A DNA stretch of 32,000 nt from Acaryochloris marina MBIC11017 (lineage in GTDB: Bacteria > Cyanobacteriota > Cyanobacteriia > Thermosynechococcales > Thermosynechococcaceae). Shown here piece after piece: positions 27,685 to 32,000 of this stretch. Position numbers and translations under genes: made by a program. The notes under the pieces were generated by a model. It saw nothing but the letters and a program-made list of their open reading frames with translations. It was not told the DNA's origin and ran no database searches. The first letter of the stretch is position 1. The number at the start of each line of letters is the position of its first letter. The stretch is from assembly GCF_000018105.1 (NCBI RefSeq), contig NC_009925.1, positions 5,460,001 through 5,492,000 of the forward strand, in the 5' to 3' direction.

Positions 27685-27798
27685 TAGACCTCTTGCATAA
27701 TTCAGCTAACGGCATGGTAGTGGACTAAAAGTTCAAGTCAGATCGCGGCATAAATTGATTGCGTAATACACCGTGAAATGAATATTGCAAGAGGTCTA
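27685..27798. repeat. 114-bp element bounded by perfect 13-bp inverted repeats
   Basis: TAGACCTCTTGCA (27685-27697) and TGCAAGAGGTCTA (27786-27798). The match extends to 18 bp with 2 mismatches. The right arm ends 16 nt from the stop of the 4-TM gene, at the edge of the low-GC island. Confidence 0.6.
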
Positions 27799-27814
27799 TT
27801 AAATCATATTTAGA

Positions 27815-28738
27815 TTAATCCAAACCTTCTGGCATCATATTTGATAAAATTGGTAATGTTCCTCTCCAAAAAAATTCAGATAGCTTTAAACCAGATTCGT
27901 GTTCATTACTAAGATTAGTTGGTAAAGACCATCCAAGAGAATCATATAGACTTCTTCGGTATAAATCAAAAGTTGATTCGCAAAGACATCCAAATATCGA
28001 TGCATTTTTTAGAATGCTTTGGTAACAAATAAATACTGAAATTATACTTAATGGAAATGCCCACCAAAGCCAAATCCCCCAAAAACTAAAAATGCAGCTC
28101 CAAAAAAATAACCGAGTTGAAATATATAAATCAGATCTTGCAGATTGTAGTTCAAATTTCACTTTTTCAGGTAATAATAACCAAAGGCGTGGCCAACAAA
28201 CATTTGCATCTAAACCAAACCTACTTAATGTCTGACTCTCATGTGATCTTAGTATGTTACCTAACTTTGTAGGCATCAACATCATAGGATCTGTTGGGTA
28301 TTGTCTTAAATTTTGGTCTAAGCGAATATAAAGTTCATGCTCATCTCTTGTCAAATTACTAAGTTCTTTCTTAACAGCTAATTGCTGCCAGTGATGTTCT
28401 GCATGACTAATCAATTTTCTTTTTCGAGCAATTAAAATCTTTTTAAGAGATTGCATGTAAATAGGCCAGTATCCCTCTAGTAATCTTAAAAGAGATAAAT
28501 CGAAACTTTTGACTAAGAATGCAGAAAGTGTAATTAAAATGAAAGCAAAAATTAAAAAAATTATTTTACTAATTTCTGAATATTGATTTAGAAATAATTC
28601 AAGGGATGTTATCCCATATTTATTAATATAAGCTAATAGTCCACCAAACCAAAAAATAAAAGATGGTGCTAGAAATGAAGAAAATTGGGGGTCAGATAAT
28701 TTAGATCCGATATTGTCAATAAAATTTGTAGATATCAT
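27815..28738 (-). CDS. hypothetical 4-TM protein (2 TM, ~130-aa helical soluble region, 2 TM, ~60-aa tail)
   Basis: 307-aa ORF in the low-GC island. Hydrophobic segments are FLAPSFIFWFGGLLAYI, IIFLIFAFILITLSAFLV, LFFWSCIFSFWGIWLWWAF and PLSIISVFICY. Notable motifs are LRLLEGYWP and MPTKLGNILRSHE...FGLDANVCWPRLWLLLP. Its start is 10 nt after the upstream stop. Confidence 0.75.
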   Translation of the reverse strand: MISTNFIDNIGSKLSDPQFSSFLAPSFIFWFGGLLAYINKYGITSLELFLNQYSEISKIIFLIFAFILITLSAFLVKSFDLSLLRLLEGYWPIYMQSLKKILIARKRKLISHAEHHWQQLAVKKELSNLTRDEHELYIRLDQNLRQYPTDPMMLMPTKLGNILRSHESQTLSRFGLDANVCWPRLWLLLPEKVKFELQSARSDLYISTRLFFWSCIFSFWGIWLWWAFPLSIISVFICYQSILKNASIFGCLCESTFDLYRRSLYDSLGWSLPTNLSNEHESGLKLSEFFWRGTLPILSNMMPEGLD

Positions 28739-28748
28739 TTAAATAGTA

Positions 28749-29135
28749 CTAATTAACTGGTATTAATTCTCCATGCGTAGGGCATCTAGGTACTTTCTGT
28801 GAGCTATTTCTTTGGTACCAGATAAAATCGCCATATGGACAAATAAATTTCTTTGAGTCAATAAGTCCAATAGAATCAGGTAAATGATCGTATCCTTTAG
28901 ATACTGCGTTTAGACTTAAAAATTCAGCTACCCATTCTTTTGTTTCTTGAAAACTAACTAATAGATCTAAAAGTTGATCGTGCTGAGGTTCTCCAGAATT
29001 TATATTTTCTACTAATTGAGCTATTTTTTTATCAATTAAATAAGTGTCTTGAGAAAATAAATTTGGAAGATGCCCTCTTATGGTACATGCACATTCAAGA
29101 ATAAGTTTTGGCTCAAAATTTTTATTATAAGACAT
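28749..29135 (-). CDS. hypothetical small soluble protein with paired Cys motifs
   Basis: 128-aa ORF with no TM helix. It has exactly four Cys: CAC near the N-terminus (LECACTIRGH), and CP-x17-CPTHG at the C-terminus (FICPYGDFIWYQRNSSQKVPRCPTHGELIPVN). Confidence 0.7.
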   Translation of the reverse strand: MSYNKNFEPKLILECACTIRGHLPNLFSQDTYLIDKKIAQLVENINSGEPQHDQLLDLLVSFQETKEWVAEFLSLNAVSKGYDHLPDSIGLIDSKKFICPYGDFIWYQRNSSQKVPRCPTHGELIPVN

Positions 29136-30696: not shown

Positions 30697-30767
30697 GATT
30701 TTTTTAGGAAGAAGTTTAATGAGATAGAAGTTAATAATGCCCTATCTAAAATAAGAAGCTCATAATA

Positions 30768-30800
30768 TCAGTCAATAAAATAAGTTATTTTATTGACTGA
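30768..30800 (-). terminator. perfect 14-bp hairpin directly after the STAND-like gene
   Basis: TCAGTCAATAAAAT-aagtt-ATTTTATTGACTGA lies 5 nt downstream of the stop at 30806. On the minus strand it is followed by TATTATGAG, which is T-rich but not a clean U-run. Confidence 0.55.
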
Positions 30801-30805
30801 TAATC

Positions 30806-32000
30806 TTAAAGCTCTTTAAGACAGAGGTTAATACGATCTTTTATCAAATAGTCAGAATTAGGATCTCCAAAAATTTGGCTTCCAAGTGTTTTTCTATTTA
30901 AAGCATTACATTGTTTAGAGACTGAACTATCTGGATCATCTTCGAGCCATACACAACCTTCTTCATTCCATAATTTCTCTATTTCTTTAATTAATCTACA
31001 TGGTATTAATGAAATTTCAAGTGTATTTTCTAATCGTCCATTATTATTTAGATCAGCACCTATACCAATATTTTTATATAGAATAATATATGTTTTTTTA
31101 AGTGCCCCTTCTGTATATTGATTTTCTTCATCAGAGAATTCTGCATTTATTTTAACTTCACCATATTTTTTGTTTTTTAAATCTTTTTTGATTGCTTTAA
31201 TCCGATTTTGTATAACTAATTTGGCTAACTTGTTATCGGAATATTTTGCTAGTGATACGAGTTGACGCTTTTCATTGTTATCTATTTTAAGTGAATTCGG
31301 TAGTTGATTCTGTTTGTAATCAAGTAGTTTCCATATTTCACTGTCATTTTGGATTTTATCAAGTAAAGTTGTAACCGTAGAGATACGAACTCTTCGATAA
31401 TATGCCATTGCAATATTCAATTTACCATCTTCTTCATGTTGATTGGCTTGCTCAATTGTAGTTGTGAGCACTTCCAGTTGCACTGGAGTTTCATTACCTA
31501 ATACCCAAGAATGAATAATACTTAATTTGAGTTGATAAGAATTCCATAATGCAAAACTAATAATAAAAATTAATGAAGCTAATGAAACACCAATTGCAAT
31601 GATTTTATTGCGGTAGACTTTTTTTTCTTGTTGAATTTCTCGCAGTTTACGTTCAACTGCTTCCTTCTTTATTTGATTTTGTTTCTGTTGACTTAACTTT
31701 ATATACTCTTTCCCTACTTTTGAAATGATCTCTAAGTCATTATATTTTTCTATGAAATTTTCTGCTTCAATTAATTTATTTCCTTGAAGTAGCCAAGATA
31801 TATCTTTTTTTCTTCCTCCACTTTTCCATTCCATTGCAGAATATTCAATTTTTCTTGCAATCTTAATAGCATCTCTATGATCATTTATCCATATTTGAAG
31901 CCTAAACCAATATCGTATAAGTGCTTCATGAACAATATTAAGAACAACATTATCTTTTGTTTTATATGAGTCTTTTTCTAGAATAGTATCCGATACTATA
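30806..32000 (-). CDS. C-terminal part of a STAND-type NTPase-like protein with TM helix and 4-Cys C-terminal domain (5' end outside window)
   Basis: The frame is open from the window edge: IVSDTILEKDSYKTKDNVVLNIVHEALIRYWFRLQIWINDHRDAIKIARKIEYSAMEWKSGGRKKDISWLLQGNKLIEAENF. The track Met at 31834 is therefore internal. HEALIxxWxxLxxW followed by W..GR....LL.G..L..AE.. is the signature that follows the NTPase module in many NACHT/STAND proteins. After it come a Lys/Glu-rich coiled region, a TM helix (IIAIGVSLASLIFIISFALW, ~31544-31603) and a ~245-aa domain with four Cys. Confidence 0.75.
   Translation of the reverse strand, partial: IVSDTILEKDSYKTKDNVVLNIVHEALIRYWFRLQIWINDHRDAIKIARKIEYSAMEWKSGGRKKDISWLLQGNKLIEAENFIEKYNDLEIISKVGKEYIKLSQQKQNQIKKEAVERKLREIQQEKKVYRNKIIAIGVSLASLIFIISFALWNSYQLKLSIIHSWVLGNETPVQLEVLTTTIEQANQHEEDGKLNIAMAYYRRVRISTVTTLLDKIQNDSEIWKLLDYKQNQLPNSLKIDNNEKRQLVSLAKYSDNKLAKLVIQNRIKAIKKDLKNKKYGEVKINAEFSDEENQYTEGALKKTYIILYKNIGIGADLNNNGRLENTLEISLIPCRLIKEIEKLWNEEGCVWLEDDPDSSVSKQCNALNRKTLGSQIFGDPNSDYLIKDRINLCLKEL

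Follow-up and report, generated by a model that had tools for sequence, protein, structure and literature searches.

The subject of this study is a group of four genes at the right-hand end of a 32,000-nt stretch of DNA from Acaryochloris marina MBIC11017 (contig NC_009925.1, positions 5,460,001 to 5,492,000 of the forward strand), which we refer to as the window. The genes follow one another on the minus strand in a tract of low G+C content, the island, and encode a large caspase–NTPase protein (gene 1), a secreted protein (sec442), a small soluble protein (sm128) and a membrane protein (tm307). An initial annotation of the window had listed these co-directional reading frames, and all four were found again in our analysis. 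It had also proposed extending the sequence past position 32000, and this recovered both the N-terminus of gene 1 and the far border of the island. The extension comes from locus L001 (AP026075.1, a matching genome record; loci of other genomes are likewise given L numbers), which was recovered by exact-sequence look-up with the 442-aa protein and has 6 mismatches in the 12,633 bases in common with the window. An L001 coordinate equals 40697 minus the window coordinate. Positions of the features are collected in Table 1.

Table 1. Features of the island and its border (window coordinates)
Feature	Size	Position	Strand	Remarks
IS6-like element	800 bp	26821..27620	−	Right-hand copy of the bracketing direct-repeat pair
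Low-GC island	4.4 kb of 6446 bp	27621..32000		Reaches the equivalent of 34066, the start of the second IS copy
Inverted-repeat-bounded element	124 bp	27680..27803		Between the inner end of the IS and the tm307 stop codon
tm307	307 aa	27815..28738	−	All-helical membrane protein, proposed protease-licensed effector
sm128	128 aa	28749..29135	−	Soluble, proposed tm307 adaptor
sec442	442 aa	29368..30696	−	Secreted, signal peptide, 8 conserved Cys, three domains
Gene 1	3' ~397 codons of a 1013-aa gene	30806..32000	−	Frame open to the window edge

Gene 1 is complete in L001 (6850–9891), where its start is the equivalent of window position 33847. Its product has, in this order, a Peptidase_C14 caspase domain, an nSTAND1 NTPase domain, one transmembrane (TM) helix and a C-terminal domain with four cysteines that is probably extracytoplasmic. 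The part inside the window comprises the end of the nSTAND1 domain, the TM helix (~31547–31603) and the C-terminal domain (~30809–31546), and it had been correctly recognized as the tail of a STAND NTPase with a TM helix. The match to nSTAND1 (PF20703) covers residues 256–681 of the protein and positions 1–378 of the 379 in the profile (E 8.2e-114, 381.6 bits, cut-off 27.1), and that to Peptidase_C14 (PF00656) covers residues 5–229 (E 2e-16, 60.8 bits, cut-off 21.4). The motifs of the caspase His/Cys dyad, SGHG (93–96) and DCC (144–146), are present, as are the Walker A motif GPSGCGKS (297–304) and the Walker B motif LIIDQFEE (from 387). With both domains far above threshold and the catalytic motifs intact, gene 1 looks functional as judged from its sequence. 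Residues 1–724 also match phrog_923, a PHROG of unknown function (E 1.6e-184), and the caspase–nSTAND1 architecture is therefore present in virus or prophage records. The protein has a single strongly hydrophobic helix (residues 749–767). The domain behind it is 246 aa long, carries Cys 950, 965, 980 and 1009 in its last 65 residues and has no match in Pfam.

The product of sec442 is hydrophobic at residues 10–28 and, in an alignment of 46 sequences, Ala31, where the signal peptide ends, is nearly invariant. In the same alignment, Cys 120, 141, 192, 212, 219, 228, 249 and 284 are invariant or nearly so, which bears out the earlier description of a secreted protein with eight cysteines. Because conserved cysteines occur both in this protein and in the C-terminal domain of gene 1, and because sec442 has a signal peptide and gene 1 a single TM helix, we place the two outside the cytoplasm; the caspase and NTPase domains of gene 1 would be cytoplasmic. 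Profile–profile comparison shows no relationship between the C-terminal domain and sec442. At E<=1e-3, a full HMMER search found 239 relatives of sec442 among 1.84 billion protein representatives, and some members of the family have additional cadherin or Ig domains. The AlphaFold2 (AF2) model of sec442 (predicted local distance difference test score, pLDDT, 81) is built of three domains, the N-terminal one beta-rich, the central one alpha/beta and the C-terminal one a beta-sandwich, and Foldseek returned no match to it in the PDB at E<=0.001. The region ~284–352 of the model shows a weak local resemblance to the FecR/PupR-like structure 6ovk_R (69 aa, root-mean-square deviation 2.9, prob 0.92, E 0.27), and Pfam FecR matched none of the 46 members; we treat the resemblance as a lead only.

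Gene 1 and sec442 form a conserved pair, a membrane-anchored caspase–STAND protein with a secreted partner, which we call module A. Wherever it could be read (L006, L009–L012, L091, L093 and L096–L098), the gene before the sec442 relative ends in the extracytoplasmic domain of gene 1, with E values of 3e-21 to 2e-55 in L091, L093, L096, L097 and L098, and nSTAND1 was found in these upstream genes wherever the sequence was long enough. L091 has module A with a separate CHAT gene and without the other two genes of the island. The region there (NKFP01000001.1, L091 2245–10067) encodes a PG_binding_1–Peptidase_C14 protein, a short CHAT protein, an nSTAND1 protein with the same C-terminal domain, the sec442 relative and an unknown protein of 210 aa.

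The other two genes, sm128 and tm307, make up module B, which is the widespread conserved unit. Homologues of tm307 number 386 at E<=1e-3, none with a Pfam domain, and 190 loci were found in a collection of one genome per GTDB species. They are spread over cyanobacteria, Chloroflexi, Actinobacteria, Acidobacteria, Gamma-, Delta- and Alphaproteobacteria and one Methanothrix metagenome-assembled genome (MAG). The AF2 model of tm307 (pLDDT 90.1, predicted template modelling score 0.83) has 12 helices, with two hydrophobic helical hairpins and between them a 126-aa loop that carries 19 Lys and Arg residues and is therefore probably cytoplasmic. The initial annotation had counted four TM helices; two are strongly hydrophobic, and the other two merely moderately so by a Kyte-Doolittle estimate and the AF2 model. 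The motifs LRLLEGYWP and CWPRLWLLLP are conserved. Foldseek gave no fold match to tm307 in the PDB or BFVD at E<=0.001, the best E values being 0.23 and 0.43.

The small protein sm128 was detected by local profile iteration over the fetched loci in 81 of 83 tm307 loci. It has no hydrophobic segment and consists of an N-terminal helical domain, a linker motif [KR]G[FY]xxL[PA]G, preceded by a basic residue in 47 of 52 members, and a C-terminal zinc-ribbon-like pair of knuckles (CPxx[C/D]…CPxH), with CxxH in 43 of 52 members. It had been described as a small protein with four cysteines; that number is right, but only C99 and C118, both invariant in the alignment, are conserved, along with a CPxH motif. 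Profile–profile comparison shows no relationship between sm128 and tm307. Two unusual forms were seen: the variant at L052 8407–9234 has three N-terminal helical domains, and at L069 8517–9947 the N-domain is replaced by what appeared by eye, from a KGGVG motif, to be a ParA/MinD-like P-loop ATPase region.

The sm128 gene directly precedes tm307, in the same orientation, in 77 of 83 loci, and the gaps are mostly −4 to +24 nt. Module B is tied to caspase-fold proteases: 66 of 82 loci have one on the same strand within 3 kb (CHAT in 52, C14 in 13, both in 1), and several of the remaining loci are contigs that end at the pair. Among 48 large proteins encoded upstream of the module, Pfam CHAT was found in 29 and TPR_10 in 22. 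Thus the partner in most genomes is a CHAT–TPR protease and not a STAND NTPase. Independent gene calls give the same trio of a TPR–CHAT protein, a small protein and a protein of ~305 aa, with no other conserved gene, and on a Nostoc plasmid the pair adjoins a caspase family protein of 1557 aa. In a neighbour-joining tree of tm307 the clades track the type of protease partner: the C14–nSTAND1-linked and the C14-fusion-linked proteins each form a tight clade nested among CHAT-linked ones, and the Acaryochloris protein sits on a long branch. A trio also occurs in the Methanothrix sp. MAG (L062 4426–9226), where an sm128-like protein (309 aa), a tm307-like protein (308 aa) and a CHAT protein (880 aa) are encoded in a row; module B therefore crosses the domain boundary, unless this contig was misbinned.

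The fusions just mentioned join a C14 caspase to the linker motif and knuckle of sm128. They were found in five cyanobacterial loci (L008 8739–9983; L013 and L016 8712–9983; L014 2892–4163; L017 8763–9983) and have a Gly/Val-rich linker and the motif KGFEPLPG, with tm307 directly downstream. That a caspase is fused with this constant half of sm128 speaks for a physical contact of module B with the protease. In L013, L016 and L017 an nSTAND1 gene without a caspase lies a few genes downstream.

The complete set of four genes occurs in six other loci (L006, L009, L010, L011, L012 and L093) at 25–46% identity, sec442 being 46% identical in L006, and in two gene orders, as the sm128–tm307 pair precedes module A in L011, L012 and L093. 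The four genes thus co-occur elsewhere, and a lack of synteny, which the initial annotation had named as grounds for abandoning a common system, does not apply. Its idea of a single system holds to that extent; the set, however, consists of two separable two-gene modules and is not one indivisible four-gene unit.

Singly, tm307, sm128 and sec442 had no significant match in Pfam, NCBIfam, PADLOC or PHROGs, and scans of 42 tm307, 52 sm128 and 46 sec442 members gave none either, the additional cadherin or Ig domains of some sec442 members apart. Searches of the PDB with sequence profiles of the three families gave nothing below E 0.04. RefSeq names the tm307 homologues, the small proteins beside them and A. 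marina sm128 as hypothetical protein. The spread of the families was revealed by full HMMER searches and local profile iteration; a word-indexed protein search was insensitive and found 1 homologue of sec442 and 2 of sm128. All four genes had been said to belong to unknown families, and this is true of the three partners and not of gene 1, which falls into the described caspase–nSTAND1 class. What is new here is three unannotated protein families, one of which, tm307, is widespread and confidently modelled and has no detectable fold relative.

The island is horizontally acquired foreign DNA, probably of recent arrival. In windows of 1 kb the G+C content is 0.41–0.53 across most of the window, with 0.41–0.48 at 26–28 kb before the drop, and 0.26–0.35 from ~27.5 kb to the end, which agrees with the collapse of composition noted previously. 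The low-GC tract runs from ~6.5 to 13.0 kb in L001, where the G+C content of the island was computed as 0.308 against 0.44–0.50 in the flanks. At third codon positions (GC3) the four island genes have 0.16–0.20 and neighbouring genes 0.47–0.52. The HIP1 octamer GCGATCGC occurs 12 times in the window, against 0.2 copies expected by shuffling, and the last copy is at 26198–26205, as counted before; in L001, copies flank the island on either side. Its absence from the island is only weakly informative, because the density of the window predicts ~2 copies for 4.4 kb (Poisson estimate, P(0) ~0.13) and because low G+C content by itself disfavours the octamer. In other genomes the same four-gene module has a host-like G+C content of 0.43–0.53, and the closest homologues are just 42–46% identical; the donor was therefore an unsampled low-GC organism. 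A scan of the island for promoters and terminators found sites no commoner than in shuffled sequence.

Both borders of the island are the inner ends of two directly repeated copies of an IS6-like insertion sequence (IS), at L001 5831–6630 and 13077–13876, the latter being the copy inside the window. They are 98% identical over ~800 bp and have the terminal inverted repeats GAAACTGTCAGGG and GAATCTGTCAGC. The decayed IS6-type transposase reported at this border does have a broken frame, and the element proved to be one of the two bracketing copies. The frame is split into short open reading frames (ORFs) by the same breaks in both copies, and one ORF fragment resembles DDE_Tnp_IS240 at E 2.9e-4 with 21.4 bits, under the cut-off of 27. 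No 8-bp target-site duplications surround the copies, since the flanking octamers, GCTGGGAG/TTCAAAAT and AAGCTAAA/ACCATGCG, differ. Two direct IS6-like copies around cargo of non-host composition recall the pseudo-compound transposons of the IS26/IS6 type. The island differs from these in its broken transposase frames and its lack of target-site duplications, and with such frames its mobility would need homologous recombination or a transposase in trans. In Acaryochloris it is a clean case of an insertion sequence mediating the uptake of such a system, the donor being the low-GC organism mentioned above. A relative of the IS6-like element, 83.5% identical over ~400 bp, is found on plasmids of A. 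marina S15 and MBIC10699.

A prophage or plasmid origin of the island was considered and rejected. The island is 6.4 kb long with four genes only, HIP1-bearing host genes stand at both sides, and the phage collection yielded no match to tm307; the sole plasmid match, a partial one, is to the IS. The inverted-repeat-bounded element next to the IS had been given a length of 114 bp. It exists and measures 124 bp, with 33-nt arms at L001 12894–12926 and 12985–13017 that are 79% complementary. No second copy is present in the window, and candidates for its nature are a miniature inverted-repeat transposable element and a remnant of the donor context. Another stretch of low G+C content, shorter than the island, at window positions 23500–25000 (0.335–0.365 in 1-kb windows) may be another small insertion; it lies upstream of a histone-deacetylase-like gene and near a 203-aa ORF (24920–25531) with a lipoprotein-like N-terminus.

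We suggest that the four genes of the island are a system for programmed cell death or defence, with module A as sensor, switch and protease and module B as output, and we put the probability of this at about 0.5. Parsimony is the reason for assigning the output to module B: the TPR–CHAT and the caspase–STAND proteins already hold both sensor and protease, which leaves module B as the one further part that is conserved. The protease would license tm307 as a membrane effector, while a role in defence or death is suggested by the context. Gene 1 would encode an inner-membrane protein whose periplasmic four-Cys domain works together with sec442, and sm128 would dock on the cytoplasmic domain of tm307 through the half that holds the KGFxPLPG motif and the knuckle. 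The trigger would come from outside the cytoplasm, for instance from a phage that adsorbs or injects or from damage to the envelope, and would be sensed by sec442 and the periplasmic domain; the STAND NTPase would then oligomerise, and proximity would activate the caspase domains. The protease might cleave sm128, tm307 or both, possibly at the basic residue before GFxxLPG, after which tm307 would damage the membrane and cause cell death or arrest.

Several points weigh against this reading. The neighbouring genes are a heterogeneous set: among 139 randomly sampled ORFs few were defence-like, Uma2/PDC-S03 appearing in 5–6 of them, and the matches to restriction-modification models probably come from a single restriction-modification pair. 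The defence-island signal is weak. The protein tm307 has no match in the phage collection or in PADLOC and so carries no independent defence label. Its soluble part has many invariant polar and aromatic residues, which could also mean that tm307 is an enzyme or a specific receptor and not a simple pore. The proposed cleavage motif in sm128 is merely a conserved linker, the FecR-like assignment of sec442 depends on a single weak local match, and the defective IS copies without target duplications leave the route by which the island was acquired unclear. As a separate observation, a CHAT trio lies beside large helicase genes in two cyanobacterial loci (L087 1–7611 and L088 192–2543; DEAD/Helicase_C/MZB and UvrD-like), with an SNase gene in addition in L088, and this setting may be a defence island.

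The receptor-like character of tm307 also suits the opposite assignment, which we regard as doubtful, namely that module B is the input: tm307 and sm128, embedded in the membrane, would sense a perturbation of the membrane or envelope and recruit and activate the caspase or CHAT protease, whose cleavage of cellular proteins would then kill the cell or reprogramme it. The highly conserved soluble domain of tm307 is more receptor- than pore-like, a caspase fused to the docking half of sm128 would be held on tm307 permanently, and the literature counts broad-specificity prokaryotic caspases among the characterised protease systems associated with defence. The same role was proposed by Kaur et al. 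2020 for the membrane component EACC1 (PMC7159879). However, the sensor idea for EACC1 has been superseded by experimental evidence for a cleaved effector, and the arrangement would give two sensors and no dedicated effector, as sensor-type domains are present already in gene 1 and in the TPR–CHAT proteins.

The weak defence-island signal, together with the extracytoplasmic position of the sensor half of module A, would also fit a cell death that serves self/non-self recognition or development in prokaryotes that form aggregates or filaments, with cues from neighbour cells or envelope stress. Most hosts are filamentous or mycelial (Leptolyngbya-like cyanobacteria, Anaerolineae, Streptomyces, Thiomargarita and Methanothrix), and related caspase systems are associated with a multicellular habit (PMC7159879). 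However, the module is mobile, being IS-flanked here and plasmid-borne in other hosts, which is typical of defence cargo. Acaryochloris, moreover, is unicellular. We consider death of this kind unlikely as the role of the island, and it is compatible with the effector explanation in that the molecular mechanism would be identical.

Less probable still is regulated-proteolysis signalling with a transcriptional or non-lethal output, in which sm128 is tethered at the membrane by tm307 and freed by cleavage, as in anti-sigma cascades and the CRISPR-linked Csx30/CalpT. The Cys/His knuckle of sm128 and its conserved linker, a possible cleavage site, would suit such a role, as would the weak local resemblance of sec442 to a FecR/PupR cell-surface signalling domain, and precedents are cited in Csx30 and CalpT, targets of proteases through which sigma factors are controlled. 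However, the neighbourhood has no conserved sigma factor or DNA-binding gene. The knuckle, besides, is degenerate (CxxC in only 15 of 52 members) and has no significant match to DNA-binding families. Finally, an accidental assemblage of four non-cooperating genes on junk AT-rich DNA, which could be read from the AT-rich spacer of 232 nt between sec442 and sm128 and from the separate occurrence of modules A and B elsewhere, is very improbable, as the four genes stand together in at least six other loci in two gene orders, their 25–46% identity rules out recent copies of one element, and the AT bias, strong as it is, has left the four ORFs and the catalytic motifs of gene 1 unbroken.

As to known systems, the usual members of the caspase–nSTAND1 class have C-terminal cytoplasmic sensors of the repeat or lectin type (TPR, WD40, FGE/CLec). 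Gene 1 resembles them in its N-terminal caspase, its central nSTAND1 domain and its intact motifs, and differs in its C-terminus, a TM helix and a four-Cys extracytoplasmic domain, followed in every case by a dedicated secreted partner, sec442. Such fusions are a class of conflict-system proteins surveyed by Kaur, Burroughs, Iyer & Aravind 2020 (PMC7159879). If our reading is true, this caspase–STAND protein, together with its periplasmic domain and its dedicated partner, would offer a tractable example of a STAND switch whose sensing takes place beyond the cytoplasm.

[quoted passage not shown] Module B is like it in occurring mostly in a trio with a TPR and caspase-fold (CHAT) protein, a small protein included. 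It is unlike it in that tm307 has a fixed architecture of ~300 aa with no fused domains, whereas for CATRA systems a variable effector position, for example GT4, is described (PMC8195603). A TPR-fused caspase-fold protease, as expected in a CATRA operon, is found among the relatives of module B, and the window itself has a C14–nSTAND1 protein without TPR. Scans of 42 tm307 and 52 sm128 members against Pfam and NCBIfam, libraries that may include models of CATRA-N, CATRA-C and CATASP, matched no family. It is possible that module B has been described already under another name.

A further analogy is with the EACC1–caspase, Pepco and bacterial gasdermin modules, in which a sensor-fused caspase-fold protease likewise stands beside one or more constant membrane-associated partners that are co-inherited with the protease type. 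EACC1 and Pepco are small proteins beside defence proteases and were identified experimentally as pore-formers unleashed by cleavage (bioRxiv 10.1101/2025.11.14.688446), and the logic of a protease with a linked effector is already known (Evans et al. 2025, bioRxiv 10.1101/2025.11.14.688446). No match to EACC1, Pepco/Trypco or gasdermin was found among the island proteins in Pfam, NCBIfam or PADLOC. We rejected an EACC1–caspase two-gene system, as sm128 lacks a Gly-rich TM helix and the gene 1 caspase reaches 77.3 bits against NF047832 (caspase_w_EACC1), whose cut-off is 140. A bacterial gasdermin–protease system was rejected also, as none of the four proteins has a PADLOC or Pfam match apart from the two domains of gene 1, and the models of tm307 and sec442 have no gasdermin match in the PDB. 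Module B differs from all these modules in having two proteins and not one. Moreover, EACC1 has ~110 aa and one TM helix, whereas sm128 has none and tm307 is a multi-helix integral membrane protein of ~300 aa with no fold match in the PDB.

The licensing of death effectors by proteases is turning out to be widespread in prokaryotic immunity, with parallels to eukaryotic pyroptosis, and every newly characterised protease-effector module has shown a different mode of killing. We propose, with clearly less than even odds, that sm128–tm307 is an unnamed effector cassette gated by caspase-fold proteases and made up of a docking adaptor and a membrane protein that lacks a detectable fold relative, an additional class beside gasdermin, EACC1 and Pepco, which in Acaryochloris would be driven by a STAND NTPase reading an extracytoplasmic signal through its periplasmic domain and a secreted co-receptor. 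Because the pair is common, tied to CHAT and caspase proteases and unannotated in the libraries searched, it is a testable candidate for a new class of effector next to these three.

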